DNA of 35,895 nt, taken from NCBI GenBank assembly GCA_049999805.1, contig JBNGIO010006223.1, forward strand, positions 62,636 to 98,530. The letters run 5' to 3'. Numbering within the stretch: position 1 is the first letter of the stretch; every line of letters starts with the position of its first letter. A program made the translations under genes and the position numbers. This document shows positions 2,712 through 32,429 of this stretch, piece by piece. The notes beneath the pieces are model-generated. The model searched no databases. It saw nothing but the letters and a program-made list of their open reading frames with translations, and was not told the DNA's origin. This stretch comes from Folioceros fuciformis. Taxonomy: Eukaryota.

Positions 2712-3340
2712 ATGGCGTACTCCCTCGCGTGCTCTTCGATTTCGCCGTCGTCCGCGCTCAGCAGTCGCGTCTCGCTCTCCAGCGCGGGCGTGCCCGGTTT
2801 CAGGCCGGTCCGGGTTTGCATTGGCAGGAGAGAGGCAACAGCGCCAGCGGCGACGAGGGTTGCTCCCATCAGGGCCCAGGCGCAGGACAATGACGGCGCC
2901 ACTCCTGCCGCCGCGGGCCTCAAGAAGGTGAGCTGCCGCGGTTTGGATTGAATCTGCGCTTCCGCTCCAGGCCTTGCTCGCTGCTGATGCGGAATGTGAA
3001 TCTCCGGTGCTGGCGACGTTAGGGATGTTTCGTCATGCGCTAACTCGTGGTCCTGACGCTGTCGCAGAAGGGCAAGCCTGTGGTTGCCAAGCAGAGGGTG
3101 CTGTTGAGGTTTCTATGGCTGGAGAAGAATATCGGGATAGCTCTTGACCAGGAGATCCCGGGGCATGGGTGTGTGCCCCTCAGTCCCTACTTCTTCTGGC
3201 CGAGAAAGGATGCCTGGGAGGAGTTGAGAGCCAAGCTGGAAAGCAAGTCTTGGATCTCCAGGAAGAGGACAATCATTCTTCTCAATCAGGCTACGGACAT
3301 CATCAACTTGTGGCAGCAAAGTTCCTCCGCTTCCCAATGA
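2712..3340 (+). CDS. PSRP3: Plastid-specific 30S ribosomal protein 3 (PSRP-3/Ycf65 family), 2 exons
   Basis: Exon 1 (2712-2927) encodes a Ser/Ala/Arg-rich transit peptide ending KK|gtgag. Exon 2 (3068-3340) encodes [57 protein letters not shown], the Ycf65 signature. Confidence 0.95.
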
Positions 3341-8218: not shown

Positions 8219-10949
8219 TCATAGAGGAATGACATAGACCCCATATGTCACTCCATAATGCTCGGGCTCTCGTCTATAACGTCCGGTCAGGCATATGAAG
8301 CTCCTTATCCGTTGTGTGCTGAACACAAAAGCCATGGTCGCTGTGAAGCCCAGAATGAAGCCAATACTCAGTGCTACATCTGACATAACCGGATCCGAGT
8401 GGTCAGATTCCTCTCCGAAATTGTGGCTATTATTTCCTTCAGTCCCTGACCCTCCTGATTTAATTGAGCAAAGCGGTAGTGGAGGACCACAGAGTCCAGC
8501 ATTTCCCGGCACAAAAGAAGAGCTGTCGAGACTACCAAATTGCCCGCCCGTGGGAATTGGGCCTGACAGATTATTCCACGAAACGTTGAACAAACTCATG
8601 AAATTTAGATTTGACAGGGTGGACGGAATGTTACCGGACAGCTGGTTGTGGCTCAAATCCAGGATCTCTATCATACGTAGCTGCCCTAACCTCTTCGGAA
8701 TTGGCCCATCAAGCTCGTTGTGGGAAAGGTCCAAAAATCTCATTCCAATGAGAACGCCAATTTCTTCTGGGATGGAACCCTGTAGATGGTTAGATGACAA
8801 GTCGAACGCTGTATTTGCCTTCAGGAGATACTGGAGTGGCTTCCCACTTAAGGGAAGACGTAGGTCTTCATATATAGTAAACTTTCCAACATCTTTGTCC
8901 ACCGTTGCATTTTGGAAACCTTTCAGGCCACTGAAAATCTCGATTGGAATGGTTCCAGTGAAAGAGTTTATTGGACAGCACCAGTGCCTGCAGCTGAGGC
9001 AACATTCCCAGCCAGTTCGGGACGGCCCCACTGAGATTGTTGCTTCCGAGATTCAACACGCGCAGATCCACAAGCTGCTGTAGCTCTAGGGGAATGCTTC
9101 CATTTAGCTGGTTCTCATGCATGTCTAAAATAACCAGGCCCGTGCAATTGCCCAAACTGGATGGTATACGACCAGACAAAGCATTTGATTGTATGATCAA
9201 AGTGCGTAGGCTCTTTGCGTTTCCTATACTCTCTGGAATGGGGCCTGGCATTGGGGTTGACACGACAAGCATTAGGAAGAGACTCTGAAGAGTCCCTGGA
9301 AGCAATATAATGATTAAATAAAGTTTGCAGTGTGCACGAACGGGGCAAGAGCAGATGTTACAGCACCTTCCACTTGGCTTTCTTGGAGAACGAACCTCTG
9401 CAGCGAACTCATATTTTCAAACAGCTTCCTTGGGATGAATCCGTATAGCCCAGAGGAAGACATCTCAAAATCTGTGAGGTGTGTCAACTTGGCAAAGTCT
9501 TCAGGAATGGAACCCTGTAGATTGCTTCCCCCGAGATGCAGTATTTGAAGGTCGGAGAGACTGACCAGGGAAGCCGGAAGAAGGCCTTCAAAGCTATTGT
9601 TGTTCAACTGGAGATTTTGCAACCTTGTCATGTTCCCAAACATATCGGGGATGGGTCCCGACAGGTTGTTATAGCTCAGATCCAACACTACAAGCTCCTG
9701 AAGCTGCTGAAAGCTGGTTGGTATGATACCAGTGAAGTTGTTCCTCGTAAGCCACAACTTGGTGAGTGGTAACCCTCCCAAGACGGAGGGCAGCATCCCA
9801 TTCAAATAGTTGTAGGGAACCTCTAATACGGATAGGCTCGATAGATTGGCGAACCAGTCAGGGATTGGTCCAGTGAAGTTGTTGCCGAAAAAGTGGAGCT
9901 CCGAAAGGGCGGTCATCTTGCTGATGCCTTCTGGCAGAGGCCCTGTGAACTCATTTACGCTTAACTCGAGAAACACCAAGATGACAAGCCTCTGTATGCT
10001 GGGCGGGATGCTGCCAGACAACCTGTTGGAGCGCAAATCCAAGTGTGTCAAAGAGGTAATATTGCTAACTGCTTCTAGGGTGATGGTTCCACTAGTGTTG
10101 AATGTGCTCTCTCCTAATGCTAGAAGGTATAACCTTGAAAGTCTGGACAATGACGTGGGGAATGGCCCACTTATGTTGTTCCACCCCAGATCCAGATACT
10201 CAAGGTTGCTGCAGTCGCCGATCTCGCTGGGAATCGGCCCTTCCAATCCACGGTGTTGAGATTGGTAGCCGTACCATTCTATGATTGCAAGATTTTTTAA
10301 CTGGCCAATGCTTGATGGAATCTGACCCCCGAGTTCACCGTTTCCTCCCAAGCTAAGTACTGTCAAGTTAGAACAATCCCCTATAGATGCAGGGAGGGAT
10401 CCGTTGAGCTGGTTGAATCCAAGTTCCAAGTACTGCAAGTTTTTGAGCATGCCAAGCTCGGCAGGAATGATCCCCGTCAGCTGGTTGTCCGACAATGAAA
10501 GCTGGACCACGTTCTGTAGGCCACCAATCGCAGGATGGATGGAACCGCTGAGCTGTTGGCCTGCCAACAACAAAGAAACCACTGTCCAAGTGCTGCCTGC
10601 CCAACCGCACTGGACACCGACCCAGTTGCAAGCAGCCCCAGCGTTGTCCTTTGTCCATTTCGCAAGGACACGTGATGCCTTGCTTAAAATCCAGCAGAAT
10701 GGACACCTCTGTTGCGTTCGAAGGCGCGTCATAGACATCTTGCAGCTTCCTTCCTTGGGTGGTGCGGTGAGCAGTGCAACAAGACGTATGAGCGTCGGCA
10801 AGTCTATTTGTGTGCTTGTGCGTGCCATTCCACCTACTTAGCTTGAACTGAGGTGACGACGCGAACGATGAAGCACAGACTCCTGGAGCGCCGACACCGA
10901 GATGCCGACACAAGATCCCCGCAACGAGAAGCAGCGGCAGCACCCCCAT
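8219..10949 (-). pseudogene. LRR receptor-like protein (signal peptide, LRRNT, ~20+ plant LRRs, island domain, TM helix, short tail) broken by three frame disruptions
   Basis: Signal peptide MGVLPLLLVAGILC; LRRNT EVSILLDFKQGIT/..LAKW..ACNWVGVQC; many LxxLxLxxNxLxGxIP repeats; GNAGLCGPPLPLC cap; TM VALSIGFILGFTATMAFVF; no kinase domain. The reading frame changes at ~10670, ~9296-9340 and ~8968. Confidence 0.85.
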
Positions 10950-11090: not shown

Positions 11091-12330
11091 CAGTCTCAAG
11101 CATCGGCTGTGCCTGAAATCCAATCTCTGCAGACGTTTCACGACGCAGAGAAGAACAGAGGCAGCATCTCGTGTGTGTGAAGTCGAATCCGTGCAGCCGA
11201 TGGTTCACAGTGATACGTTCTGCTGGTGACACGTCTCCGGCAGGAATCACAAGTCAATGAAGGTCTAGACGTTATCCAATCCCGGCATACGGAATGTTGG
11301 AAAAAGAGCTAAGACTTGCATACTACAGTAACTCAACAGCTTGTAATTTAATAGCAAATAACCCCCTTAGTTTCCTAAATAAAAAATATACAACATGCAT
11401 GCCCGGTAAACAAACCTTTCTGGCATGACATGCCAACACCTTTGTCGGCCCGATTCGGGCTGCCCTGCCGTGCCGTCTGGACTCACATTCCGTGCTGAAT
11501 AGGTCAACCGTGAGCAATGCCAATTCCTGTACATACTTAGCAGGCTAAGTGGCTGCAACATGGAGCGTTAGGGCGCGACGGGCCCCGAGCCCCAAGCCCC
11601 CAAGCGGGCCTGCCTGAAGGGGGAAATGGGAGCGCTCCAACAACGGCACTTGCAGCGGCAGCGGCATCGGCAGCGGCAACGGCCGCGGCCGCGCGTCTTC
11701 CAATAAAATTTGGTGTGCACGCTGGCAAGTCGTGAGACTCGCCAGTCAGGGCGCGCGATTCACACTTGCCATGTGGAACGACAACTTCACTGCAACACTG
11801 TAACAAGCACACGACAGCACTCGGACATGCAGCCAGCATTATATGCACGGATTCTTGGCTGCGCGGCCAGATTGGATACGGTCGCCTCCTCTTCATTCTG
11901 TGGATCTTCCGCATACACTCATGAATGCTCTCCTGTTCCCGCTTCCCCACGCCCTTCCAGCTCGGCGGCCATCCCCTCCGTCTTCTACCCGTGGTCACAA
12001 CCCCGGCTCCGACTCGTTACTCTCCTCCAAGCAAGCACTGTATGTATGTACACAGCAGCTCCAAGTCCAGCCCACGCCCACGCCCGCGCCCACGCCCACG
12101 CCCAGCCGCAGTTCGGACCGTCACTCTCCATTTAATTCGACTCTCAATTTATGTACGTCCCTTCGCCGTCCGGCACATCAGTCTCTGTCTCCCGCTTTTT
12201 ATATCCTGGGGTCCTTTTCTGTGCCGTGGTGTCGATTGGAGTGTCGCGGAGTGGAGTGCACCACCTACAACCCAGCTCCGCCGCCGTCTTCCGCATTCTG
12301 CCAATTTGCCACCTCCTACTTCTCCCCGCC

Positions 12331-15300
12331 ATGGAGTCCGCTTCGGGGGGCAGGCTCGACGCCGGCTCGCTCTCCGTGCGCCTCGCTCCCAGGAAGGGCT
12401 TCGGGAGCGCGGGCCAGCCCATCTACGTCGTCTCCAACTACTTCGTCGTCACATTTAAGCCCAAGCTCCTCTATCAGTACGACGTGAGCTCCAGCACCAC
12501 CACCCAATTCCACGCCCGCCTCTTTGCTCCAAATTGTCCTCGTTCTTGTTCTTTTAGGATGGCATCCCACCGCTGTATTCTTTTGCTCGCAATTGCGCTG
12601 CCCATCTGCGCACCAAGCTGCGCCGTCCTAATGCCAAGATTGCTCCCCCTCCTCCTCCTCCTGCTGTGCTGTTGCTGTTTCGTTCATGCCTTGCCTTTGC
12701 CGTAATTCTCCTGGCGCAGGTGAATATTACGCCCCAAGTCCCCAAAGGCCTGCAGAGAGCCGTGTTCGAAGAGCTGTGCAAGTTCGAGCAAGTGTTTCCC
12801 GACGGAATGCTGCCTGTTTACGACGGCCACAGAACTATTTATACGTCCCGGCCTCTCAAGGAGAAGGTGATCGATACCAAGGTGACGCTGCAGGAGCTGC
12901 AGTCCGGGGGGGGCCGAACGAGGAACCGGGATTTCGAGGTGGTGCTGCGGGCTTCGGCGCAGCCCGACCTCAGGCTGCTTCGCAGTTTTCTGTCCGGGAC
13001 AACGCCCGACCTGCCTTACGACTGCATCCAAGCTCTCGATGTTGTGCTCAAGGAGACGGCCACTCGTTGTGGGTAAGGCGGACCGGCCCCGCTCTCACTG
13101 CCTCACGCTTGCTGGATGCATGGGCTGCTCGCTCTCCTCCTCTGCTGCCACGGCTCCTTCGCTCTTCCTCAATTCTGTCTCCCCTCTTTGCGCAGCTTTC
13201 TGGCTGGGAAGCGTTCGTTTTTCGCCACATTGTTTGGCTCCACCAGCCTGGGAAATGGTGTGGAGGCTTGGAAGGGCTTTTATCAGTCTCTCAGGCCGGG
13301 GAATGACGAGCTGCTTCTCAATATAGGTGCGTGACTACTGCACTTTGCTTTCTCCAAATGTGTGTGGCTCGCCGGCTCGCCCGCTGCCTTGGCTCGGCTG
13401 GCTCATTTCCGCGGACTCTTGACATCTCGTGGCGTGCACAGATGTGTCTGCGCTGGCTGTATTAGAGGAGGTGCCGCTGCTCACGTTCTTGGAGAACGCG
13501 TGCAGAAAGGATGTGAGAGAATTGCACCGCGCCCTGCAAAGGCGCGATGCAGAAGGGGATCGCTTCCGTGTGCAAGTAGCGCCTTCTCTTGCTCTCCACT
13601 GCACCAACCCCCTTCATTGCCTCTGTCTTCCTTTGGACTAATGTGCCCCCCACCCTTCTTCGCAGATTAGGAAGAGCCTTAAGGGTCTTCGAGTAGCAAC
13701 CCTCCACGCGGCCAGACGCAAATATAAGATCCAAACCATCACGGATGAACCGCTGAGCGTCTTGAAGTCAGCAACTTACTCAAATTCCCCCGGTCCAAGG
13801 GAAACTTGTTTCACAGCTCTTTCAGGAGACTTGCATGTCGTAGGCTGATCACGGTTGTTGTCTGCATCAGATTTGATATGCAAGGAATTGAAATGACTGT
13901 GACCGACTATTTTGAGCAGAAGTACAATCAAAGGTTGGAGTTTCCTGGGTTTCCCGCCATTAACGCAGGCTCCAAGGAGAAGAAGAAGTACATCCCTTTC
14001 GAGGTACTTCATTTCGTTTTGACAAGGTTCGGGTGTCCTGTCTTGCCTTCAAAGGTTACTGAATTGAACAAATTTGGTGGCTCAGGTCTGTAAACTAGTT
14101 GGAGGTCAGCGCTTCATGAAGAAACTGGATGAGCAGCAGACGGACAAATTCAAGAATTTTACCATGGCCGCCCCTGGGAAGAGGCGTGCAGACTGCGAAA
14201 ATGTAAGCTCTTTGCGCCCGGCAGTTCCCCATAGAGTTCAATTTCACAACCGATAAGCACACGTCAGGGTTTTCAGAAGCATGTCCCTGTGTTCGTGTTC
14301 GTGCTACCAGTGGATGACTTGCATTCTGACTTGTGTGGTACATAGATGGCAAGGAACATTCACCACCAAGGTCGGAAATACGAGGAAGAGTTTGGCCTGG
14401 GTATGAATCCTGTAGGTGCCATAAAAGCAAGAGTTCTTCCAAAACCGAAGGTTATAAGCCTTTTCAGCTCGTCGCCATGGCTGACGCCGCTCTGGTGCAG
14501 AGATTTCTTTTCGTGAGTTCTCAAACATCCAGGGGGATTTTACAGGTGTGCTACAGCAATTCAGAGGCACAGATCAACCATGCGGGAGCGTGGAACCTAA
14601 GAAATACGGTATAGAGGTCTCCTGTTGCACTGTCAGCACGCTTGGGCTCTTTCTGGACTGCCTCACAATTGACAATGCATGCTGCCTTCCGAGAGGAATT
14701 CAGGTTCTCGTCGAAGGGTGCAAAATCAGCAACTGGACGTTGATCAATTTCGAGCCACGATTGGATGGTGGAGCTGTTCAGAATATTGTTGATACACTTC
14801 CCCGAGACTGCAAACGATATGGGGTGGTAAGTTCATGGTCCTGCTCGGCGCGGACTGCCTACAGTTGGATGACGTCTCCTAGTGAATCTCCTGTCACGTT
14901 TATGATTTCTCACATGTTCTGGGAATGTGTTAGGCTTTAAACCCATCTCCTGTAGTCGGCTGGGTCACCGAAAAGGGCCGAAATGTTGGAGCTGTCATTA
15001 AACATGTCTGGGATGAATGTCAGTCCAAGACCTCGAAGCACTTGGAGCTGTTGGTTGCGATCATGCCCTACTCAGGAGATAAAGAGATCTACAGTACGTC
15101 AGGAAATTTCTTATCTAAAAAATTGTGACAGCTTTCCTGCCTTGTCTGATTCCTGTTTTCTGGTGCTAGGATTAGACTGCGCTAATCACTGGATGGACAA
15201 CATTCTCTGTTCTGATCACTAGGTATTTTTCGTCCAGGATCTGTAAAGAAGATTTGTGAAATAGATTACGGTTTCCTATCTCAGTGCTGCAAGGCTGCAA

Positions 15301-17124
15301 ACATTGCAAATAGAAAGCCAAACTTTTTGGTTGGCTATCTGGCTAATGTGATCTTGAAGATAAATGCGAAGGTACACCTTCTGCACCTTATGGAATGGAA
15401 TGTTTTCATCTTGCAAATTGAGCGAGCTCTCATTACTGTTTTGCTTGCTTGCAGTGTGGGGGATTGAACTCTCTTCTGATGAATGAAAAGATGAAGCGAC
15501 TTCCTCGCATCTCTTCCAGCCCAACAGTCCTTATTGGCGCAGATGTATCACATCCACGCGTGGGGGATGACTCAAGTCCCTCAATTGGAGCTGTAAGTGA
15601 AGGCCAACTGCACTGTCACTGACTTGCCTTCGCACATCTTTTAGTTGCTACTCTTGTTGAGTTCCCTGTGCAGAGCTTTTTTTTTCCACTCCTTGTTGAT
15701 GTTGTCACAACCTGTTCACTGCAGGTTGTTGGGTCTGTGGACTGGCCACATTTTGCAAAATATGTGACGAAAGTTAGAGCACAGTCTCACCGCACAGAGG
15801 TGCTTGAAGATTTGTTCTGGGAGAAGACTGATGAACAAGGGAGGAAGCAAACGGGTGGTATTTTCAAGGACCTGCTGACCGTCTTCAAAGACAAGGTTTC
15901 CAAGAAGCCGGAGCAGATAATCTATTTCAGGTACGGTGCGCGATGTTTTCCTGCGTTTGTGATGAGATCATTCATATGGGAAGACGCCTCATTAGGCATG
16001 TCTGGCAGAGATGGTGTCAGTGAGGGCCAGTTTGACATTGTGCTGCGGGAGGAGTGCGATGCCCTCAGAAAGGTGGCTCTTTCCACTTTGTATGTGCAAG
16101 GACTTATTTGCATAAAAGTCTGCTCACTCCTGCTCACGCAGTATTGTACAGGCATGTGTCTCTCTAGGATGGGGAAGCCATGCGTCGGGCGCCCCTGGTG
16201 GGCCGGCTCAGAAAAAGTCTAAGATGGACACACCGAGGATCATCTTCATTGTTGTTCAAAAGAGGCATCATACTAGGTTGTTTCCATCGGAGAGCCGTGA
16301 TGATAAGCAGAATGTTCAGCCAGGTGATCTGTCTTGGGTTCCATTTCTTATTTACTGTATGTGAAGTTGATGTCAGTCAGTCACGCAGAAAGAGGTTCGG
16401 TGTGTCGGTCTAATCAGTGTTGTGGTTCAACATGGGCAGGCACCGTGGTGGATCGAACAATCTGCCAGCCCAATCATTTTGACTTCTTTCTTTGCAGTCA
16501 TGCTGGCCTTCAGGTGTGGTTGTTGGTTGTGACTCTGTGGCTGGATAGCGGACTTGAAGACGCCGCATACTTGCCACACTTTTGGTTGCAACGCGTTTGT
16601 GAAAAGTCGAAAACGCTGTGCAGGGAACGTCGAGGCCTGCACACTACCACATCTTACTCGATGAGATAGGGTTTTCTGCTGATGACATCCAGACTCTAGT
16701 GAACGAGTTGTGTTACCAGTAAGAGATGCTGAGAAATCTTGATTTGTCGCTGACCTTGCCTGTCTTTGGAACGCTGATCCAACCCAACCTTGTTCCGCGT
16801 CCGTGGGCATGCAGGTATGCTCGCTGTACCAAGGTGGTCTCCATTGGTAAGTGGTATTTTTTGAGAAAAATGTCGCTTGTCACTCGCAAGCTAACTCTCG
16901 TGTCTTGCACAGTTCCCGCGGTGTACTATGCTCACTTGGCTGCAAAACGAGCAAGAGATTGGATAGACTTTGAAGGATCTTGGGCCTCGGAAGGAGGATC
17001 TCACCAGGAGACCGGCAGTATTGTAAGCGCGGGTAGTGGAAGCGGGCGTGTGCGTGGAGCCTGCACCGTTAAACCCTTGCCCCAGATCCATGAAAGAATC
17101 ACGAAATCCATGTATTATATTTAA
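12331..17124 (+). CDS. AGO: Argonaute A (N, L1, PAZ, L2, MID, PIWI), 20 exons, intact, DEDH tetrad
   Basis: All exons join in frame at GT-AG sites: [155 protein letters not shown]. Confidence 0.97.
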
Positions 17125-17897
17125 GGCCGTCAAGTCTGAGGGAGCAATACGGTCCACGGGATTCATTGCGTTAAGGAATCCTGGACGCATAAACATTTCC
17201 CAAGTGATTGGCCGAGATTCTGATGGAGCGATCGCGCCAAGGCGTGTGGGACCATGTCCGGCACCATCTTCTGATGCTCACGTTCGCTTTCTGGGAATCG
17301 AGTTATCTTTTAACACCCTTGATACCAAGTATGCCCGACTTTGTGAGTGGATACCGCTGGTACATCTACGTATATTTATTAACTTGCAGATGCCCACAGA
17401 ATATATGCGGTCTTTCAGCAAACCAGCAGCACAGGCACTGTGCATACATACACATCATACACCAGTCACCCAGCTCAAAGTCTAATAGCGACCATGAAAT
17501 GCACGTCACACATGGGACAGCAGCCAGGGGAATGCAGCATGTTTCAGAACGGGTAAGCACCGTAAGCAGACACATTGCATTTGTAGCTCATCAGGACTTG
17601 TAACTTCAACTGGACCTACAACATCTCTTCCGACAGTGGTCGACATCCTGCGTTCAGCTACGTCTACTCAGCGTTTGCACTCGTAGCGCCGATGTGGAAT
17701 TTACTCTCCAATTCCGAGTACAAAAGAAAATTCAAGAACCGAAAATTATGTCACTTCTGATAAGAAAGAGCGTGTTGCGTGCTCTCGCGCACTTGCACAC
17801 ACCTCTCTCTTCCCCTTCCCGAGGAGCCTAACCTCTACAGTCCACATACTATATTATGTAGATACTATCACGAGACCAGTGGCCTCAATACCTGCTC

Positions 17898-20800
17898 CTA
17901 AATGAAATACATATGTCGTTTCAGTTTCTCGTTGATCACAGGCAGTGGCCGTACGGGTCCCAGCGCCCCACGAGCTCGTGCGGAGCGGCTTGAGTTGCTT
18001 CCCACATTACTGTCTACATCAGGTCGTGAACTCCCTCCGTCAGATAGGGCATCATAGTCGATCCAAATCCGAGCTCGGGTCGCAGCGAGATGCGCATAAT
18101 AGCAGGCTGGTACTGCACATGCGTCTCACATGGATTACTAGTCTTACAATCAGGTGGCGATTCACATTACAAAGTTATGCATGGATTTTGCACTCACAAC
18201 AAGTGACCATAAGTACTTACCAATGGACACGGCTCTTGGACAGCGAGCATAGCTGCCACAACCACAACGAACGTGTGAGAAGGTACATCATAGTTACATG
18301 AATTATAGTAGAAATGTGTGCCTAATTTAGTCACTTACTTGTGGCAAAGGTCGTTGGTGAGTTTCTGGATTTGGTCAGCAGAAAACGAATTCTCGTCGTG
18401 GACAACATGATAATGTGCAGGCCTGCTTGTCCCCTACAGGAATTGTGATGTGGATCACTATTTAGTAGCTCATTACTCTGAACGCGCAAAGAAATAATGA
18501 AAAAAACCAATATTGCTACAACCTGAATCCCCAAATGGCTGCAAAGAAAGAAGTCAAACTGGGTGGGATGGCAGATTACAGAATCCACGACAGTTCCTGT
18601 ACACACATAGACAGCTTCAAAATGATAACAACAAAATCAACAGGCTAGCTAGCTGACAAAACTAGCCAGACGACCCAACCTGGAAAAATGTTCCCCGTTT
18701 TTTGGGTTTTTCGGCGATCCCTTGGAAACAGACGAGTATGGTGTTGTTTCTGAACGACAATGAAGGTTATCTTGGGAGTAATGTCATTCTCCGATGCGCG
18801 TTGCTTCTTAGGAGCTGGCTCCTCTTGTCCAGGTTGTTGAACCCAGCCAAGAGCCTGGCATGCCTGTCAGTGGTTCACGACGCAGGGTTTAGCACAATTG
18901 CATTTCCATAAGGCCAAGCCCTTCTGAATGTACCCGAATGTACAGAGTGTGGTATACCGCTTTCACGGACTCCAGTTCTTGCTTCATGACAGCTTCAAAT
19001 TGTCCATCGCTTACTCCGTCTCTGCAAATCACCGTTCAAGTCCTGCAAAAGCTGATCGACAATTTCCAGGCACAAAATGGATTGTATGCCAAACCTGTAG
19101 AAGAGTATTCTCTGTGGTCGTTTTCCTGTGTTCCTCGCAAATGATGCCAAGAGATCCCTGCCAACCCCCAAAAAACCAATGCTCATATTCAGCTTGTAGA
19201 TGTACTGACATGAGAAAGAATATTAGAACCACGCAGCAAAAGCTTCTTGGCCTGTATGAAGGACTCCGGGAAAGTGGTTTTGCAACAGAAACTGCGTTCA
19301 GGAGACAAACTTACATTACGATGCCTCCAGATTCCTTTTGCCCCTCGTCATTCACTCTTTCCCAATACAGGTCGTCTAGAATTTCAGTTCGATGGGCTTG
19401 GCTTCGTGTCAGAGTCTCATATCTGGAGAGATTCGGCCAGTCCATGCTGGCAACCACCTGCAGAACGAAGGAGGTCAGCACATGTCAATCTAGATACTAC
19501 ATTACAGGGATGTCGACTGTCGTATGAAAAAGACTGTGAAATGCGTACGTACCGCGGCGATGGACGGACTACGGTCGTCTCCAACTCTGGGATGCGACAC
19601 ATCAGCACCGATGACTATTGACGGGACATCAGACAACAAGGGAAGTGGTCTAGAATTCACGTCCACCAACAGTGCATTGTTTCCCCCTAGCTGCTTGGAC
19701 ATATTCAGAAATCGGTGAAATCGGATCAGTAAATAGGCTGGGCATGAGCAATACTAGTTCTGGAACAGAAAATCTGGATAGTCAGCTTGTTATCAAGCCA
19801 CGTCGTTTACCTTCATGTTGATCTTAAGGATAACGTTCTGGACGTACGCTGGAAGACATTTTTTAAGTGCCTCTCCAGATTTCAGACACTGCGTCATGAA
19901 TCCGAGCTCGACATCACAAAGCTTCTTGACCGCTCCTGAACGGCATTCCAACACTTTTTTGAACAGCGTTGAAAGATTTCGCCATACTATGACAGAAAAG
20001 TCTAGCTTCAGCGTTCTTAAAATTGGTGAACCAGTTCACAGGGACTTACCGTACATTGCCTTGTTCTCCATGGTGGTGGGCAGGATGCAGATCAACAGCT
20101 CCAAGTCTCTACCAGTTTTGTCTTTTGCTTCCTTGCAGATGTGGTGGATGGTTTTCTCAACGTTCCCCCTCCGGTCTGCTATCCAAGGGCAAGCCATCTT
20201 TGGATTGATATCCTGTACGCAACGACAATCAGTTAGGAAGCAGCTAGGTACCGTATCTTCCAAGCGGAACAACTAAAATCGAAGAGCACCCTTTCGCAAC
20301 ATACCAAGCCGTAAACGATGCAGTTTCTCACAAATGTCGAAATAAAGTGCTCTATTGCATTGTCACTAAGCTGTGCGGCGAAACTGATTAACGTCCACTG
20401 TTTGATGACGGAACTCCTGAACATCGTCTTTGCAACAGTAGCCATTATACAGATTTCAGAATCCTTGTTTCGCTAGGACCTACACTGTAAAGCGGTTTTA
20501 AAGATCAGGGAAGTTTTCAGATGGATGAACCGTACCTTCCCATTCATTTTCCACCAGCCCTCTTCAGGAAGAACTTCTTGCCGTTGTCCATATAGGATCT
20601 GGAACACATCCGTACAGAGAAGTTCAGACGTGGGGGACGTTCAGAAAGTTGGAAGGACCTATCTGACCGGACCTTGGGTGCAGGCAATATTCGTCCTGTG
20701 ATTTCGGCCATCCGACTGCTGACTCTAATACCGAACTCTTCGGCATAGGTGGCGCTGGCGTTTATGCTTCTCTTGGCAATCTGCATTTCAGGTGTCGAAC

Positions 20801-22904
20801 AAGTTAGGTGGGGCAAGATACAAAATAACAGGGAGCTATCCAAACTTACGTTGTTTGTCTCTTCCAATCTATCCGCTGGTCTCGAGCACGTCATCCTCAG
20901 CAAGGCATCAACCTGTGCTTCGTTGAGTTTCTTTGTGTGGCGCTGACCACGCACAATTCTGCACAGCTGTTCAAGGCCGTCGACTTGGTATTTGCATTGA
21001 CGTCTGCTCTAGACATCTGCATCGACTTTTGGGGCGCATCTGGTTTTGCAATATGGGGTAAGTATGCTCACCTCCATGGGTATGTACGTTGACTTCTCCT
21101 TTGTACCGACTTCAATAGCCGGCAGCCCAGCAAGGATGATGCCGTGATTATGGCGCTCTCTAAAATACTGAATGATACCGATTCTTGTTCCATTGTGATC
21201 GAACCTACAACGTTCACCAGAGACCAAAGAACAAACGCGATGTCATCCAAAGGGATACCGGGTTCCATAAACCCGTTGAGTCGTATGCGTATACAAAGCA
21301 GAACCTGTCCCGCGCGAAGCAACTTGAGAGAGTAAGTGAGGCTTACGACAGTTCGGAGAGGGGGACATTCGTGACGTTCTGGATTCGATATTTGCGTTTG
21401 GTTCCGTAGATGAGCTCAACTCGAACTCCTTTGAGGAGCTTCTTGATCTGTATGCACGTCAGATGTACAACATCAAGCGTGGAGCGTTCTTTTTGGCTGG
21501 GACGGAAAAATGGACAGCTCTCTGAATTGGGCTCCTACTTTCACTCGTGATGCGTCGCCACGACCATCAGGCCCTTGTAGCTCCTTGTTCATCTCGTTGA
21601 TATCAACTCTCAAAGCTTTTGCGATGTAGTCAGGCAAGAGATCTGGCTCCAGGAATGCGTTTGCGGAGATGTCTGCCATCCCCAGCGAAAGTCAGCTGGC
21701 TTATGTTACATGAAAGCTAACGTCATGCATTTCGATGATCTCATGCGTCATCACAAGGTAGCTCTCTGTTCCACCATGCACAGGCACCTAAGAGAAACTG
21801 AGAAACTGCCACCAAGATTAGTCACAGACAGTCGAGCAGGTAGGATGCAAGGACTCTCGTACCTATGTTGAGAATGAGCTTGCCGTTTTGTGCAGGCCGA
21901 ACCGACTGGTAAAAGCCTTTCCAAGCCATAACCCCGTTGCCAAGAGATTTGTTCCCAAAGCATTCATCAAAGAAGGACCTCCCGCCTGGCAAGAATCTGC
22001 ACATCAAAGTCAATCGAGCCGATGAGAATGAAAGAAAGCGGACAAGGAAGGGAAGTGTACAGAAGGTTCATGTCTAGAGTAAAATATGGGCAGATTCCGA
22101 CTTACCTTTTTGTTGCAGACTCACGTAGCACAATGTCTAGGGCTTGCAAGGCCTTCTGGGGAAGAATGGGAACGGTGCCCTCAAGAAAGGCTCGCAACTG
22201 AGCCAGATCGACCCTAGAAGCCTCCCTCAAAATCACGTGAAATGAGCGATTTTTCCTGCAACAGAGGAAATCGATGAACAAATAGTAGTGTGAACCCGGC
22301 CCCAAAGAACCGAACAGTGGAAAGAAGCAGTGAAGAACCTCAACACTACTTACCGGGTTCTGACGACCGGTCCATCGCTGTCGGTGTTTTCCGGCAACGT
22401 GATGTCGAGCTCAACTTGCTCAATGGGCAGAGGCTTAGCAGTATACAAACTCTTTTGTCCATCATAGGCGGGGAGGGCTCCACCCAGCTTCTCCATGCGG
22501 TACTCAGCCACCAGCGCAGTCATCACAGCTCGATTGAGCCCCCTTGGCACATCCGGGGAGATAGTAACCTGCAAGAATCGATATAGCATCCAACGTTGGT
22601 AGACGGACTAACTAGCCGGAAGCCAATTCGACGTGCCGCATCACTGAATCATCCTATGCGATAAGATGCTTACGTCGTAATGGTAGAGGAGCTTAGGAGT
22701 GAACTCGATGAGGTAATGATTCGCCAAAATTTTCACGGGATCTCCCACTGAGCCGTGATTCGGTCTCCTCGCCAGACTTGGTTTCGAGGCCGCCATGGAT
22801 CTGATATTCGGGCTGGAGGTGGTAGCAAAATCACCACGCGGTGTGTCTGGGCCCATTCGCTTCCTGGAGGCGAACCGCGGCGGGGAGGCCATAGTGGAAA
22901 GCAT
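17898..22904 (-). CDS. AGO: Argonaute B, 22 exons, intact, DEDH tetrad (ATG at 22904 or 22892)
   Basis: In-frame spliced exons: [156 protein letters not shown]. Confidence 0.97.
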
Positions 22905-23479
22905 CCTTCCAGAACTTGCTGTGGCACTAACGATCAGCTGTGTCACTCCAGAGCCGGAGCGTAGATGTAACAGAGGTCACTCAGCTAGCACCAACGTCTA
23001 TGTAGAAATATCTACGAATGGGACCGCGGACGTAAGCGACACCGAAGCCACCGCACGTCTAGACTGCAACTTGAAGCGATCTAACAAGACTGCAAACTGT
23101 GGAGCATCACCAGAAAGCAGAGCCGGGCAATTGTACCGGAGCGTAACCAGGAGCAGAAGCAAGAAAGAGCAGGGGAAGATTGCGGCTGAGGAGAGCGCAG
23201 CAGATCTAGAGCTCAGAGCGGATAGCGCATCAGAGATGGAGACGACGGAGAGGAGGGGAGAGCGCCGCACAAAACAAAGGAAAGCATTGGCGAAATTTGG
23301 TTGCAGAATGCCAGGCACGGGCAAGGCCGGCTCACTCAACCTTGAACTACACCCTCACTGTCTGTGACATGATCACGTACGCTTGGCGCCAGTGCACGTC
23401 GGATCGTCTCTGGGCGTATCAGAACCGGTTGGTATCCCTTTGTACCGTCTGCACCACGCGCGCGTACGTCACTTGGAAC

Positions 23480-23513
23480 TATCTAGAGTGATACAAGAGT
23501 ATCACTCTAGATA
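23480..23513. repeat. Perfect 15-bp inverted repeat with 4-nt loop
   Basis: tatctagagtgatac-aaga-gtatcactctagata. Confidence 0.9.
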
Positions 23514-23660
23514 CGAGAGGAAATGCGTCTGTCGCTACCGTGTTAGGAGACCAGGCCCTGGGTGTTAAGTTGACACCGTCTAGCAAACTAAATCAAACAT
23601 TATATCTCATCATTTTTCTTAGTTATTGTTTATACCTAGAGGTTATTTGCACATAAAACC

Positions 23661-24830
23661 TCACGTCCCTTGCTTACATGTACAATAACCCCAAGCGGTT
23701 CCAGCACCACTCACAATATTTTTGCGTGTTGTCCCATTGTCCTGAGTGTTGACATAAGTAATATTTGGAGAGTCTGGAGTTGGTAAGACCACATGGTTGT
23801 CTAATATGGCTATTGCTTTTTGGAGAGCACTCCGCACAATGTTTTCTTGCTTGGAATTTCGAAGCATGCCAACTGCCTTACATTGGGCTACATACCAAAA
23901 GTGCCCGATAACCTCTTCGAACAAAATATGCAGCAGCCAATCCAATCGCCGATTACTAAGCGTTTTCTTGGAGGGCAAACATCTGTACTTCAGATGTTTG
24001 TGATATGCTTCTATGGACGAGTTGTAATCTTGTTTGGCATGTGGAATTGTCCTAATTGCTTTAATCCACTGTAGCATGTTAAAACCCCACTAGTCTTTAA
24101 AATACTTCACAAAGCTGCTAGCAAACTCCTGAAAGGTAGTTTGGATGCACGCTTGGTTTATGTCTACCCCAACATCAATGTCCATATGCATGATGTCACC
24201 TAAGGATTTCATACTTGCATACCAAGTGTCGAGTGCTGCAACCAAGCCCTCCAAACATGCCATAGACACAAGAAAACCAGCACGTTACTTCCAAACACAG
24301 ACTTAATGCCATTTATTTCTGCCATACAATCATTTACCAGAAAAGCGGTTGCCAATCTAACCTATGTAGAAGCATCCTTGCTCGTAAGGATTCCAGCCAC
24401 TATGAAATATTGGCTGCCGTAGCCTTGCTGGTAATCACCCAAGCAACAGGGATATCGTTAAAATGGTCGTAAAAAACCAATAGAATGAATAGCTAGAACT
24501 CCACTTATGGGTGCCAAATGTGGCATCCATAGATATCACTGACTTATGACCCAGACGTAACATGGAGTGTAACTAAAAATCTATTTGGATGCCTAACATA
24601 AAATCTTTGGCATGTAGTTCTTCTCCTAGCAAAGGGAAAAATACCTCCTCCCTGCGGACATCCGTCCATAGCTTGATAATCACCTCATCATTTACATGGA
24701 ATCGCCACACCCTGGAATCCAACTCTGCTTGCAAATTCCTTATATCTCCAGGCAACAAAAAAATTATCCTGTTCAAGGAAAAAATCATCTCGCTCAAGGA
24801 CTGCTTACACATCATGATGATTCCTTAAAA
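23661..24830 (-). mobile_element. Degenerate Mutator-like (MULE) transposase with start of a SWIM zinc finger
   Basis: Minus-strand fragments in the expected order: VISMDATFGTHK (first D), FLVND..AEINGIKSVF..FLCLWHVWRAW (second D region and CxxH), DYNSSIEAYHKHLK (E), YCTCKQG (SWIM start). Interrupted by stops and frameshifts; AT-rich. Confidence 0.8.
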
Positions 24831-24911
24831 ACTATTAGAAATGAATAGTAGTTTAGGGCAACACATCAAAAGGATAATTGTTCCAAATTAATTTATGCCA
24901 TATCAGAGAGT

Positions 24912-25216
24912 GGTAGAAGAACTTTGCTTGTAGTTTAAGCAAGGTTATTACTATAGAACAGATGGTGTATAGAATAGTAACATGNNNNNNNNNNAGCAAG
25001 GTTATTACTATAGAACAGATGGTGTATAGAATAGTAACATGGTGACCCTCCGGTAGAAGAACTTTGCTTGTAGTTTAAGCAAGGTTATTACCATAGAATA
25101 GATAGTGTATAGAATAGTAACATGGTGACCCTCCGATAGAAGAACTTTGCTTGTAGTTTAAGCAAGGTTATTACTATAGAATAGATACTGTCTAGAATAG
25201 TAACACGGTGACCCTC
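24912..25216 (+). repeat. 83-bp tandem repeat (about 3.5-4 copies) spanning an assembly gap, probably within the copia LTR
   Basis: Unit ggtagaagaactttgcttgtagtttaagcaaggttatta..atagaatagtaacatggtgaccctcc; ggtgacc recurs at 25041, 25124 and 25207. Confidence 0.88.
24985..24994. other. Assembly gap (10 N)
   Basis: Run of n characters inside the 83-bp array. Confidence 0.99.
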
Positions 25217-25370
25217 TAGTATACAAGGGGTCATGGCCACACTCTATAGTGTAGTGGTGAATAGATAAGCATCAGTGTTTGAGCTGATTCAGCTTGTACA
25301 TGTTGTCCACCCTCCCATGTCTTGTAAAATATTTCCCCTCAATAAAGGCTAGATTCATATATTTCTAACA

Positions 25371-25383
25371 CGGTATCAGAGCC
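25371..25383 (+). promoter_or_regulatory. Primer-binding site complementary to the initiator Met tRNA 3' end
   Basis: cGGTATCAGAGCC directly after the LTR-terminal CA (canonical TGGTATCAGAGC). Confidence 0.8.
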
Positions 25384-25488
25384 ATGTTCTAGAGCCTAAG
25401 TAGTTTTCTCTTGGTCAGTATAGTTGTGTACTCGTGTCAACACCTCTTTTGCATAGTTCTTAATAGAGTGCTAGAAAGAACTCGTGTG

Positions 25489-27458
25489 CAAATGCTAACA
25501 ATGGAGAAGATCTCTAGAACATGGTATCAAAGCCATGTTCTAGAGCCTAAGTAGTTTTCTTTTGGCTAGTATAGTTGTGTACTCGTATGAACACCTCTTT
25601 TGCATAGTTCTTAGCATAGTGCTAGAAAGAACTCGTGTGCAAATTGTGAAGGTATTGATAGTATTCATTCTATAGCAAGAGGTTGAAATTCGAGAGGATA
25701 TAATAGATGGCGTCAACAAGCATGGAGACACGTTTCATTCAGACATGCTCGATGGAGAAGTTTGGAGACAAGAACTTCACACTATGGAAGTTAAAGATGA
25801 AGATGCTTCTCATTGACAGAGAAGTATGTAAATTCGTCAACAAGGGTCTCGAAGACACACCCACCGAAGGAGACCTTGATAAGGATGGACGAGCATTAGC
25901 TGCAATCCTTCTTAATGTGTCTGATGACATACTCTCTCAATTGAGTGAGTGTGCAACATCGAAGAAGGCATGGACTACCCTTTGCGATATGTATGAAAAA
26001 AGAAGTATGTTGAGTGAGATGTTTTTGGAGTAACAACTGTCCAACTTCAAGATGGTTGAAGCGGACACGATTCAACAGCACGTCAACAAGTTGAAGAACT
26101 TGGCCTTGAGATTTTTTAGCAAGGCTAGGTACAAGGTGTACATCCTTTATAGTACCTTTGGACTTTTTACTAAGTAGTGTTATCTTTATGACACCTTTCC
26201 CTTAAATCTCGTGTGATGTGTTATCACTAAGCGCTAATGTGTTATTACTAAGCGCCACCTTATGCCATGTTGGCATTTCTTTGTAGCTCGAGATCTAGGG
26301 TCGGTTGTAGGTAAAGTGTTGAGATGCTTCAGAGTCTAGGTATAGACTCTCATCCTTCCTTGATGAGCAATCTCCCACTATCTCTATTGTTGAAGCATAA
26401 AAGAGATTTTCATCCCGCTCACTTACTTGATTGGCTTGTGATTGTTTTCCCTTCTTCAAGTCAACCAATCTTGTCCTACAGTCTTTTGCATGATGGTTAG
26501 GTTTCTTACAGTAATGACAAGTACCCCATGTCTTTTTCTTTGTAACTTTCTCCTTTAATCCTTCATTGGAGTTGTCATGTGAGGTCTTCCCTTTGTGTTT
26601 TTCCTTTCCTTGAAAAAAGTACCGAGTCACCTTTGTATTCATTCTCGAATGCATTCACTAGCTTCTCTTGTAGAAGCAACCCAACCACCTCTTCTATTGT
26701 TGCTTGTTTATTACTTGAATGCATCGCCGCTGATGTCCTAAAAGACAACACAAACTACATGTACGCAGATGGTAAACTATTCAATAACAGCATAATAATC
26801 CTTCGTTTAGAAGGTTTGATGTCTATAGCTTGCATTTGATCAACCATGTTCTTCAACTTATTGACGTGCTGTTGAATTGTGTCCGATTCAACCATCTTGA
26901 AGTTGGACAGTTGTTACTCCAACAACATCTCACTCAACATACTTCTTTTTTCATATATATCGCAAAGGGTAGTCCATGCCTTCTTCGATGTTGCACACTC
27001 ACTCAATTGAGAGAGTATGTCATCAGACACATTAAGAAGGATTGCAGCTAATGCTCGTCCATCCTTATCAAGGTCTCCTTCGGTGGGTGTGTCTTCGAGA
27101 CCCTTGTTGACGAATTTACATACTTCTCTCTCAATGAGAAGCATCTTCATCTTTAACTTCCATAGTGTGAAGTTCTTGTCTCCAAACTTCTCCATCGAGC
27201 ATGTCTGAATGAAACGTGTCTCCATGCTTGTTGACGCCATCTATTATATCCTCTCGAATTTCAACCTCTTGCTATAGAATGAATACTATCAATACCTTCA
27301 CAATTTGCACACGAGTTCTTTCTAGCACTATGCTAAGAACTATGCAAAAGAGGTGTTCATACGAGTACACAACTATACTAGCCAAAAGAAAACTACTTAG
27401 GCTCTAGAACATGGCTTTGATACCATGTTCTAGAGATCTTCTCCATTGTTAGCATTTG
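25489..27458. repeat. Long inverted repeat: arms 25489-26103 and 26844-27458 (~615 bp each), ~740-bp spacer
   Basis: The arms are reverse complements with only about 7 mismatches seen by eye; the ORF track shows near-identical proteins on opposite strands. Confidence 0.95.
26295..27458 (-). mobile_element. Inverted second copy of the same copia element: PBS, gag, zinc knuckle, start of protease
   Basis: gag ATG at 27240, premature TAA at 26914, CHYCKKPNHHAKDC (CCHC knuckle) and YLDSEASQH (degenerate LDSGAS protease motif) in ORF 26295-26654. Confidence 0.88.
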
Positions 27459-27459
27459 G

Positions 27460-27750
27460 ATCTTAGCATCCCTAGATATCATTGACTTGTGACCCTAACG
27501 CAACATGTACTGTAACTGAAAATTTGTTTGGATGCCTAACATAGAATCCTTGGCATGTAGTTCTTCTTCTTGGCAAGGGAAAAATACCTCCTCCGTGTGC
27601 ACATCCATCCATAGCTTGACACTCATCTCATCATTTATATGGAATCGCCACACTTTGGAATCCAACGCTATGTGCAAATTCCTTATGTCTTTAGGCTGCA
27701 AAGAAATCATCCCGCTCAAGGACTGCTTGCACATCACAATGGTTCCTTAA
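27460..27750 (-). mobile_element. Second, diverged MULE transposase fragment (paralog of ~24530-24830)
   Basis: MMCKQSLSGMIS..DIRNLHIALDSKVWRFHINDEMSVKLW..MLGIQTNFQ versus MMCKQSLSEMIF..DIRNLQAELDSRVWRFHVNDEVIIKLW..MLGIQIDF. Confidence 0.75.
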
Positions 27751-28268
27751 AAACATCTTAGACTCATGGTCAATCAGGATTTGAAAAGTAGTCATCTTGT
27801 GGAGCAACAGATAAAGGAGCAAGGGTACAATTTGAAGTTAAATCACTAACTAGCAAACCATGACAATACTCTCCTGTGCTCCCTTTGATGTAGTCTCAGT
27901 TCACCAACCTCAGAAAACATCTCCAACTGTATTACAAATAACAACAACTGCTCCCTTTGCCTAGCTTTGGCTTGTTAGTGATGTGCGCACGAATTGCAAA
28001 ATCTGGAGGAGTTTGCTTTGGATAGCCATAAGCATAGGCAAACTTGATGTAGTGCCGAGGAGTGGTAGATGAAATTCCTCTTTTGCCTCACATCAGATCT
28101 GGTCCAAACATTAGTAGCCCTTATCAATTATTTGGGGAAGAATGTCGACTTCTCTTCGCCAGCAATGAAATCTGGGTACTTCATCTAGGGAATGTAGCAA
28201 CGTTTCACACAAATCACCGTCTGCCGAACAAGATGCTCACCATCCTGCCAATTCAATGTCTCCTAACA

Positions 28269-31618: not shown

Positions 31619-32429
31619 GGCTCGCTGCTCGCCTTCTTCTCCCTTGTTCTCGACTCCCCGTCAAGTTCTTTTATCCTACACTACCTGGCCTACTTTCCTG
31701 CACGTCGTGTGGCTGCATTCAGTGAACCTGAAAGGTTCTCCTTCAGGAGACTCTGTACTTGCATACATCCATATAACGTGACCTCCGTAGATAGATAGGA
31801 TATTCCATTCTCTCTGAAGGACCCCGCCGGTACACGTGGAATACTACAGTACGTACGCGTGACCTTATTCATACAACTCCTTATTTCCTCACAACTCCCC
31901 GCTTGAATCTTTGGAAGGCAGCGGTCAGGCGTGACATGCCAAACTTTTTTCAGAAAATTATTTTCTATTGTACTTGCTTTTGCCATCATGACAATTCAAA
32001 ACAATTCAAAAACTGCCTTGCCTTCTTGGGCCCCCCCTTCCCATACTGCTGTTCGACTCCAGCCTCCTCTTGGCACTTCGTGTGGTGAAAGGCTCTCCCG
32101 CGACATTCCTCATCCATGAAGAATCATCTTGCAAGCAACAAAGCTTAATTGGAAATCTCCAGAGACACCATCAATACCCCCAGTCAATACACGACCAGCG
32201 TAGTGCGCTGGGACAAGGCATATAGGGGAAAGAGCGAGGGGAGCTGGATTCCATTTGGCCATAGAGGAGTAGCACCGAAGGAGGGGCAAATCCCGTGACG
32301 GCCACAGAAACCCGAATGATGCCCATGTTGCCGCACCCCCTGCTGGTTGGTGGAGTGGGCCTTCAGCTTGTAGAGCGAAATAGCCTTTGGAACCTCTGCG
32401 GAACTATGGTCGCCGCTTCGCACACTGGG

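Follow-up and report, generated by a model that had tools for sequence, protein, structure and literature searches.

A convergent pair of Argonaute genes of the AGO-like clade in nuclear DNA of the hornwort Folioceros fuciformis

Introduction

A fourth clade of land-plant Argonautes (AGOs), named AGO-like, was described by You et al. (2017, Genome Biol 18:158, PMC5569507) from a hornwort, lycophytes, ferns and gymnosperms, with loss in angiosperms; Table S2 of that paper lists m14883 and m115433 from Folioceros fuciformis, together with g6055, under this name. The clade recurs in the analysis of Wang et al. (2021), who describe it as a long-branch clade absent from bryophytes, and in a 2023 review, which treats it as a clade without known cargo or function. 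AGO-like is the one major land-plant AGO clade of which this can be said, the angiosperm models lack it, and we found no functional study of it in the literature searched.

You et al. reported the hornwort members as transcripts only, whereas the genomic DNA analyzed here provides their arrangement, exon structure and common introns. We conclude, with a probability of about 90%, that the locus holds the hornwort's two AGO-like-clade Argonaute genes, which lie as convergent neighbors and are identical, where compared, to the published Ffum14883 and Ffum115433.

Results

The window is the whole analyzed stretch of 35,895 nt from F. fuciformis (assembly GCA_049999805.1, contig JBNGIO010006223.1, positions 62,636 to 98,530 of the forward strand), and all coordinates below are counted from its first letter. 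The AGO pair sits in nuclear DNA, as seen from the introns and the ordinary plant neighbors. Gene 1 (plus strand, 12331-17124) and gene 2 (minus strand, 22904-17898) converge tail to tail, their stop codons separated by 773 bp (17125-17897, GC 0.48). Both models are intact from ATGs at 12331 and 22904, where an earlier note on this DNA, made from the letters alone, had placed two full-length genes in this orientation. New from the window are the convergent neighborhood, the 773-bp spacing of the stops, the exon counts of 20 and 22, the 19 common introns and, for each gene, a precise model with its transcript ends.

The gene 1 model was obtained by spliced alignment to P0001, its orthologue from a second hornwort, Nothoceros aenigmaticus (EukProt EP00246), to which it is 74% identical; an exon-only search, made with the gene 1 exons alone, gave one match among 301 candidates. 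The model encodes 899 aa in 20 exons at 12331-12483, 12720-13072, 13196-13326, 13442-13575, 13666-13766, 13871-14003, 14086-14202, 14346-14450, 14546-14608, 14704-14826, 14934-15093, 15238-15371, 15455-15592, 15725-15930, 16009-16072, 16152-16323, 16440-16513, 16624-16718, 16815-16846 and 16913-17121, with GT-AG in every intron and a TAA stop at 17122-17124. An upstream in-frame ATG lies at 12151, and this is where the published Ffum14883 coding sequence begins; the Nothoceros orthologue and the sequence context of the ATGs nevertheless favor a predicted start at 12331, which we adopt.

Gene 2 was modeled by spliced alignments with six guide proteins and encodes 934 aa in 22 exons on the minus strand, at 22904-22674, 22568-22354, 22255-22106, 21996-21863, 21672-21539, 21447-21347, 21204-21072, 20966-20850, 20780-20673, 20598-20536, 20427-20305, 20212-20050, 19935-19811, 19690-19553, 19457-19315, 19157-19095, 19021-18958, 18863-18680, 18596-18523, 18433-18339, 18252-18221 and 18112-17901. 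Translation starts at the first in-frame ATG (22904) and ends at a TAG at 17900-17898. A single pair of exons remained ambiguous (20966|20850, 20780|20673) and was fixed by the joints of a transcript contig, record 2 of the public run X1.

Two contigs of run X1, whose library type is unrecorded (the label "RNA?" is a guess), span 40 joints, 19 in gene 1 and 21 in gene 2, and at every joint the intron ends read GT..AG on the strand of that gene. They align to the window as 42 pieces (20 + 22) with 0 mismatches and leave the introns and the spacer uncovered. Because all 40 introns are missing from these contigs, we take both genes to be transcribed. Contig record 1 (3,205 nt) covers 12047-17345 on the plus strand and comprises 284 nt of 5′UTR, 2,700 nt of coding sequence and 221 nt of 3′UTR, so that the gene 1 5′UTR begins at or before 12047. 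The gene 2 contig covers 17722-23300 on the minus strand and continues for 77 nt past 23300, the end of the compared stretch; its 5′UTR is at least 473 nt long and contains four upstream ATGs, all out of frame. The earlier note had held that both copies were retained and intact, and the open frames, canonical splice sites and fully spliced contigs agree with this. An overlap of the convergent transcripts, considered as a source of antisense small RNAs, is unsupported here: the contigs stop at 17345 and 17722, 376 bp apart, and no overlap was seen in the spacer.

We compared the two genes with the published Folioceros sequences over exon 1 and total length, about the first 400 nt of each published sequence being visible. 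By eye, gene 1 exon 1 is identical to Ffum14883 at 333 of 333 nt and gene 2 exon 1 to Ffum115433 at 231 of 231 nt. The length of Ffum14883 (2,880 nt) equals that of the gene 1 coding sequence counted from the ATG at 12151, and the length of Ffum115433 (2,805 nt) equals that of the gene 2 coding sequence counted from 22904. In the visible part of the same supplement, Smog6055, translated by eye, equals P0013 except for one residue. Over the extent compared, gene 1 appears to be Ffum14883 and gene 2 Ffum115433; the pair is real, but would then already be known. In clade, complete domain set and catalytic residues, too, the pair agrees with the description by You et al.

Phylogenies of three depths agree in uniting the pair with the AGO-like proteins. 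FastTree (169 rows) places both genes in a 16-row clade with support 100, a quick IQ-TREE run (45 rows × 868 columns) recovers a 15-row clade at SH-aLRT 100, and a careful IQ-TREE run (23 rows × 896 columns) gives the AGO-like clade 100/100 on a stem of 0.60. The 23-row set is the 45-row set minus 22 rows, namely AGO4, algal, extra AGO1/5/10/18 and AGO2/7 proteins; in all trees the pair stands as the only AGO genes of its plant, and the reference clades are labeled by their named members. In the quick 45-row tree the AGO-like clade is sister, with moderate support (SH-aLRT 85-92), to AGO2/3/7 plus AGO1/5/10; in FastTree its placement beside these two is a polytomy within a wider 63-row clade supported at 99. 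The pair falls outside AGO1/5/10, AGO2/3/7 and AGO4/6/8/9, which bears out the earlier idea of a non-canonical AGO lineage.

Of the 14 clade proteins, those with a name come from a hornwort, Selaginella, ferns or gymnosperms, and the unnamed ones group with ferns or gymnosperms; there are no angiosperm proteins of the clade among the best 120 of the 3,199 matches, which were those listed. When the proteins are grouped at 50% identity, scores drop from 824 bits for one cluster, represented by P0010, to 636 bits for the next. A profile search with 11 clade members, bounded at 8,000 candidates, listed 103 proteins, none of them in the clade besides the query's own P0001, probably because that bound displaced the others; it supplied the named AGO5, AGO18, AGO2-like, Closterium and animal outgroups. 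Each of three clade motifs occurs in 13/14 clade proteins and in 0/326 other AGOs, and a C-terminal Ile in 11/14 and 13/326, respectively. The motifs first quoted as traits of the pair are all present in both genes (e.g. F(K/T)PKLLYx, (V/I)L(E/D)DL(F/Y)WE, RDGVS, YYAHLA, RAR.WID and the C-termini MYYI/MYFI); they are not specific to the pair, however, being signatures of the clade that fern and gymnosperm members carry as well. The F. fuciformis locus conflicts with the absence from bryophytes stated by Wang et al. (2021) and supports You et al. (2017).

The order N-L1-PAZ-L2-MID-PIWI is present, and the domain limits were mapped on both genes. In a Pfam scan, 9 of 12 exon translations match ArgoN, ArgoL1, PAZ or Piwi, and the Nothoceros protein contains all six AGO domains, with ArgoL2 and ArgoMid under the Pfam cut-offs. 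Alignment with AGO1/10, AGO7-clade and AGO4 proteins reveals that the four D-E-D-H columns are conserved in both genes, as had been claimed from the letters; we take these columns to be the catalytic tetrad of slicer-competent AGOs. Their codons span 15542-16935 in gene 1 (plus strand: D599 15542-15544, E640 15797-15799, D685 16010-16012, H837 16933-16935) and 19603-18090 in gene 2 (minus strand: D629 19603-19601, E670 19385-19383, D715 19020-19018, H871 18092-18090). The MID columns Y..K..Q..K..K are also conserved in both, and presumably form the pocket for the guide 5′-phosphate, as in human AGO2. Over residues 18-893 the Nothoceros protein aligns with 7sva, a structure of Arabidopsis AGO10 (E 9.8e-195), in whose chain the second Asp column of the tetrad is Ala. 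Judged by these residues, each protein would load a 5′-phosphorylated small RNA and cleave complementary RNA. Both would most likely act in post-transcriptional silencing, since their clade groups with AGO1/5/10 and AGO2/3/7 and not with AGO4.

The two proteins are 46% identical overall, with 44% in N, 65% in L1, 46% in PAZ, 33% in L2, 31% in MID and 54% in PIWI, in line with the strong divergence, including N, PAZ and MID, that had been noticed at the outset. Because MID and L2 are the least conserved parts, the two proteins have probably diverged in guide choice. Each of the 19 gene 1 introns has a gene 2 counterpart at the same position and in the same phase. Between the genes pS is 0.76, beyond saturation of the synonymous sites, and pN is 0.37, so that dN/dS is not measurable. 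The duplication is old, since the Nothoceros protein is 74% identical to gene 1 and gene 2 only 46%, and the adjacency of the genes, taken with their common intron positions, points to an old local event. A repeat scan of 11500-23800 gave just six inverted matches, 18-79 nt long, of which four link equivalent exons of gene 1 and gene 2; the introns and flanks bear no trace of the inverted duplication. The sequences show that the pair goes back to an old duplication at the DNA level in which intron positions were kept. Of the old local inverted duplication first proposed, age and DNA-level origin stand (19/19 introns, saturated pS) and adjacency favors a local event, but no inverted trace is left in introns or flanks.

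Discussion

The first reading of this DNA had raised the possibility of a lineage-specific AGO class. Both genes do lie outside the three angiosperm clades, their motifs are absent from 326 other AGOs, and identity to the nearest non-hornwort proteins is no higher than 47-52%; yet Selaginella, fern and gymnosperm proteins with the same motifs stand in the same clade, which has been in print with these very genes since 2017 and was repeated in 2021 and 2023. That the pair founds a lineage-specific, previously unrecognized class is thus practically untenable. Improbable, though less starkly so, is the proposal that AGO-like is a fast-evolving offshoot of AGO1/5/10 set apart by long-branch effects, with the two genes as divergent AGO1-type paralogues. 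The best solved relative is AGO10, the Selaginella member is named "argonaute 1B" at NCBI, the stem of the clade is long (and "long-branch" in Wang et al. 2021), and its placement reaches an SH-aLRT of only 85-92 or collapses into the FastTree polytomy. Against this, AGO1/5/10, including the zygnematophyte Closterium, forms a clade without AGO-like at 98-99, the AGO-like proteins lack the long N-terminal extension (AGO10 residue 127 aligns to P0001 residue 18), and the MFYC end is absent from the AGO-like clade. We accordingly retain the assignment of both genes to a separate AGO-like clade.

Within that clade, the history of the pair can be read in more than one way. The genes might not be sister paralogues: the duplication would then precede the split of hornworts from vascular plants, gene 2 would correspond to the AGO-like gene of vascular plants, and hornworts alone would have kept the gene 1 type. 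Spliced-alignment scores of gene 2 are higher with fern proteins (2158 and 2084) than with gene 1 (1840), its identity is 52% to a fern protein and 46% to gene 1, and the AU test does not reject a tree in which gene 2 groups with the whole vascular-plant set (delta lnL 2.03, p-AU 0.313). It accepts just as well, however, a grouping of gene 2 with gene 1 and P0001 (delta lnL 1.96, p-AU 0.299), the quick 45-row tree unites the three at SH-aLRT 66, and a gene 1 lineage that evolves faster (stem 0.59-0.71) would account for the score differences. At the base of the clade in the careful tree, gene 2 joins Selaginella and gene 1/P0001 at 32/16, and adjacency favors a local duplication but gives it no date. 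We consider the separate origin unlikely, although a serious contender. Somewhat more tentative still is the idea that hornworts keep two AGO-like subfamilies that split before the hornwort/vascular divergence, with gene 2 as counterpart of the single vascular gene and the fast gene 1 type, most altered in L2 and MID, as a hornwort-only slicer with its own cargo. That either copy is decaying or silent is very improbable. The gene 1 orthologue does fall below the Pfam cut-offs (ArgoL2 24.4 against 33.3, ArgoMid 20.9 against 27.5); but splice sites are canonical and the frames open through all 20 and 22 exons, pN lies far below pS, the catalytic and 5′-phosphate-binding columns are retained in both genes, both are present as fully spliced contigs, and Nothoceros keeps a conserved orthologue of gene 1.

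Two intact AGO-like genes, convergent in nuclear DNA, remain the reading that we prefer. The locus opens no new class, and its value lies in being a starting point for functional work in a transformable hornwort. Its additions are modest: the anchoring in nuclear DNA, exact gene models and transcript ends, and the arrangement as neighbors with common introns.

Comparison with the named clades sets the pair in context. AGO4/6/8/9 has the same domains and is more distant, branching outside the group formed by the other three clades; the named Cycas AGO4 in our set ends in MFFC, whereas the pair ends in MYYI and MYFI. AGO2/3/7 belongs to the same larger group as the pair (the 63-row clade at 99), and a C-terminal Ile occurs in some of its proteins too (e.g. 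P0361, P0175, P0234), yet it is a clade apart at 98-99 from which the three AGO-like motifs are all absent. With AGO1/5/10, represented by Arabidopsis AGO10 (PDB 7sva/7swf/7swq), the pair has in common the six-domain architecture, aligned end to end (E 9.8e-195), D-E-D-H and the MID 5′-phosphate pocket, at an identity of about 41-43%. This clade too stands apart (98-99), holding named AGO1, AGO10, AGO5 and AGO18 proteins without these genes. AGO-like proteins have no long N-terminal extension, carry signature motifs of their own and end in Ile, whereas MFYC, given as the typical end of AGO1/5/10 in the earlier note, closes the named AGO1/10 proteins of the alignment and 145 of the 326 AGOs outside the AGO-like clade; the loop that precedes the conserved Tyr of MID also differs between the pair and AGO1/5/10. 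Across these differences, the common catalytic and guide-binding residues suggest that the AGO-like pair and AGO1/5/10 probably work alike as guide-directed slicers.

Gene Structures and Transcription of the Argonaute Pair

The DNA of the window is plant-like and nuclear (GC 0.39-0.61), and a stop-to-stop ORF listing places Argonaute motifs on both strands of 12000-23200. ORF pieces of the plus-strand gene (gene 1) match the minus-strand region (gene 2) collinearly at 30-67% identity, and 9 of 12 exon translations have a Pfam match to ArgoN, ArgoL1, PAZ or Piwi. With the second exon of gene 1 (117 aa) as query, one protein matched among 301 candidates: P0001, an 894-aa protein, 60% identical, from the hornwort Nothoceros aenigmaticus. 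Our own spliced protein-to-DNA alignment with P0001 as guide yields a gene 1 model of 20 exons, all GT-AG, that encodes 899 aa at 12331-17121 (+) followed by TAA. Gene 2 was modeled by spliced alignments with six guide proteins, which agree on 22 exons apart from the 5' end; with some guides a few boundaries also differ, mainly in the exon pair around 20966-20673. Read from its first in-frame ATG at 22904 to the TAG at 17900-17898 (-), gene 2 encodes 934 aa. The convergent genes lie 773 bp apart stop to stop, with transcript ends 376 bp apart.

Public sequencing run X1 contains 43% of the words sampled from the stretch; no library type is recorded for it, and RNA is a guess. Against 12000-23300, X1 provides two contigs with 0 mismatches, one of 3205 nt at 12047-17345 (gene 1) and one of 3459 nt from 17722 to past 23300 (gene 2). 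Their 40 joints and 42 pieces equal the 19 + 21 introns and 20 + 22 exons of the models, all 15 of the 40 joints that were listed have GT..AG ends (minus-strand reading), and the gene 1 model accounts for the full length of the first contig as 284 + 2700 + 221 nt. The introns and the intergenic spacer are left uncovered, and the ambiguity over one exon pair of gene 2 is resolved by the joints 20966|20850 and 20780|20673. These data argue strongly for transcription and splicing of both genes, with the caveat that the RNA nature of X1 is deduced from the same contigs. The earlier note's description of two intact, convergent Argonaute genes with slicer motifs is thus borne out by open models of 20 and 22 exons, a retained D-E-D-H site and spliced contigs.

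An in-frame ATG at 12151 (+) lies within the transcript, 60 codons 5' of the likely gene 1 start, and is where the published CDS begins; the extension (12151-12330) is hydrophobic. The context of this ATG is weak (T at -3), that of ATG 12331 is GCCATGG, and the start of P0001 aligns with position 12331. Gene 2 has four in-frame ATGs 5' of its N domain (22904, 22892, 22856 and 22796; -), the fourth of which best fits the AGO-like clade consensus N-terminus (MA....P..S); the true start may therefore lie 36 codons 3' of the first ATG. The gene 2 5'UTR (22905-23377, -) is at least 473 nt long, provided that the contig's 77 nt past 23300 continue unbroken in the window, and it holds four out-of-frame upstream ATGs (ORFs of 7, 24, 5 and 8 codons) that could allow translational control.

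Placement in the AGO-like Clade

You et al. (2017; PMC5569507) describe four land-plant AGO clades, the fourth of which, "AGO-like," retains the domains and catalytic residues and is held by the hornwort Folioceros fuciformis, lycophytes, ferns and Picea, angiosperms having lost it. Table S2 of that paper assigns two AGO-like genes to F. fuciformis (m14883 and m115433) and one to each other species with an entry. By eye, within the ~400 nt displayed per published sequence, Ffum14883 equals 12151-12483 (333/333 nt) and Ffum115433 the reverse strand of 22904-22674 (231/231 nt); their lengths, 2880 and 2805 nt, are those of the CDSs from ATG 12151 and ATG 22904, stop codons included. Smog6055 from the same supplement, translated by eye, equals the database protein P0013 save one residue. 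With P0001 also being a hornwort protein, the window can be assigned to F. fuciformis or a very close relative.

Phylogenetic analysis gives the same placement. Among the best 120 of 3199 matches to P0001, the top 12 are fern, gymnosperm and Selaginella proteins (43-49% identity), followed by named AGO1/AGO10 proteins (40-42%); among 50%-identity cluster representatives, a single cluster (P0010, Wollemia, 824 bits) precedes a drop to 636 bits. Outgroup clades were labeled through cluster-member names (Cycas AGO4, Marchantia and Chara; an AGO7-like protein, Selaginella and Closterium; Chlorokybus and Mesostigma). FastTree (169 rows) recovers at 100 a 16-row clade in which the two genes and P0001 stand together with Selaginella, six fern rows and five from gymnosperms. 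With 45 rows x 868 columns, a quick IQ-TREE run (LG+C20 PMSF) supports the AGO-like clade at SH-aLRT 100, as sister to AGO2/3/7 + AGO1/5/10 (92) with AGO4 outside, and a careful tree (23 rows x 896 columns) supports it at 100/100 with a stem of 0.60. The pair thus falls outside the AGO1/5/10, AGO2/3/7 and AGO4 clades.

The proposal of a possible lineage-specific AGO class does not hold, since the genes belong to a known clade, and both clade and genes were already published in 2017. Nor are the traits common to the two proteins peculiar to them: when 14 clade proteins were compared with 326 other AGOs of at least 800 residues, the motifs GAD(V/I)SH.R.G(D/E)., (F/Y)WE(K/R/N) and RA(R/Q).W.. each occurred in 13/14 clade proteins and 0/326 others, and are therefore clade signatures. 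A C-terminal Ile is found in 11/14 clade proteins (consensus SMFYI), the remaining three ends being cut or aberrant, vs 13/326 other AGOs.

A 2023 review lists hornworts among the AGO-like holders and describes AGO-like cargo as uncharacterized, while Wang et al. 2021 give the clade as absent from bryophytes; this locus and Nothoceros P0001 side with You et al. 2017. We found no functional work on the clade in the literature searched. The present analysis adds the two gene structures, their convergent arrangement as neighbors and support from genomic DNA for a bryophyte having AGO-like genes.

History of the Pair and Its Surroundings

The idea of an old duplication fits the gene structures. 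All 19 gene 1 introns coincide with gene 2 introns in alignment column and phase, and gene 2 has two extra introns, which follow residues 149 and 693. Divergence at synonymous sites has reached saturation (pS 0.76; pN 0.37), and the 74% identity of gene 1 to P0001, its Nothoceros orthologue, indicates that the duplication predates the split of these two hornworts. Gene 2 is somewhat nearer to fern proteins (52%) than to gene 1 (46%). Node support at the base of the clade is 32/16 and 65/73 in the careful 23-row tree, and two arrangements fit almost equally: joining gene 1, P0001 and gene 2 costs 1.96 lnL (p-AU 0.299), joining gene 2 to all vascular-plant members costs 2.03 lnL (p-AU 0.313), and neither is rejected. 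Outside the conserved exons, we found no DNA-level trace of the duplication.

The neighbors are ordinary plant genes: an ORF with a NUDIX domain at 885-1442 (-), an exon of plastid ribosomal protein PSRP-3/Ycf65 at 3044-3337 (+) and an LRR-repeat receptor-like gene at 8222-10837 (-). A 385-aa ORF at 4919-6073 (-) has no Pfam match. An 834-aa ORF runs unbroken at 29159-31660 (-) and combines an IF-2B-family domain (methylthioribose-1-phosphate isomerase family; residues 70-374, E 2e-68) with a methylthioribose-kinase-like APH phosphotransferase domain (residues 452-685, E 9.5e-13); it may be an intronless, fused two-step methionine-salvage enzyme. Two inverted 108-aa ORFs, 25707-26030 (+) and 26917-27240 (-), are alike at 105/108 residues and lie in an AT-rich stretch (GC ~0.39, 24000-28000) adjoining a 10-N gap (24985-24994); the plus-strand copy, the one scanned, matches copia-type gag family PF14223, and the pair look like retrotransposon remains.

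Proposed Function

P0001 has all six Argonaute domains, ArgoL2 and ArgoMid falling under Pfam cut-offs. When aligned with other members of the clade and with AGO1/10, AGO7-clade and AGO4 proteins, the two genes retain the catalytic columns D, E, D, H and the columns Y, K, Q, K, K, which we take, from human AGO2, to be holders of the guide 5'-phosphate. The strong divergence noted earlier is confirmed: the two proteins are 46% identical overall, lowest in MID (31%) and L2 (33%) and highest in L1 (65%) and PIWI (54%). The weak match in MID and L2, together with a different loop preceding the conserved MID Tyr, makes divergent cargo plausible.

Our best guess, based on the clade grouping with AGO1/5/10 and AGO2/3/7, away from AGO4, is a post-transcriptional role. 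Both proteins probably act as slicers directed by a guide: a 5'-phosphorylated small RNA would sit in MID and PAZ, and RNA paired with it would be cut at the D-E-D-H site. This proposal draws on the conserved residues and on likeness to Arabidopsis AGO10, with whose structure (7sva) residues 18-893 of P0001 align end to end (E 9.8e-195).
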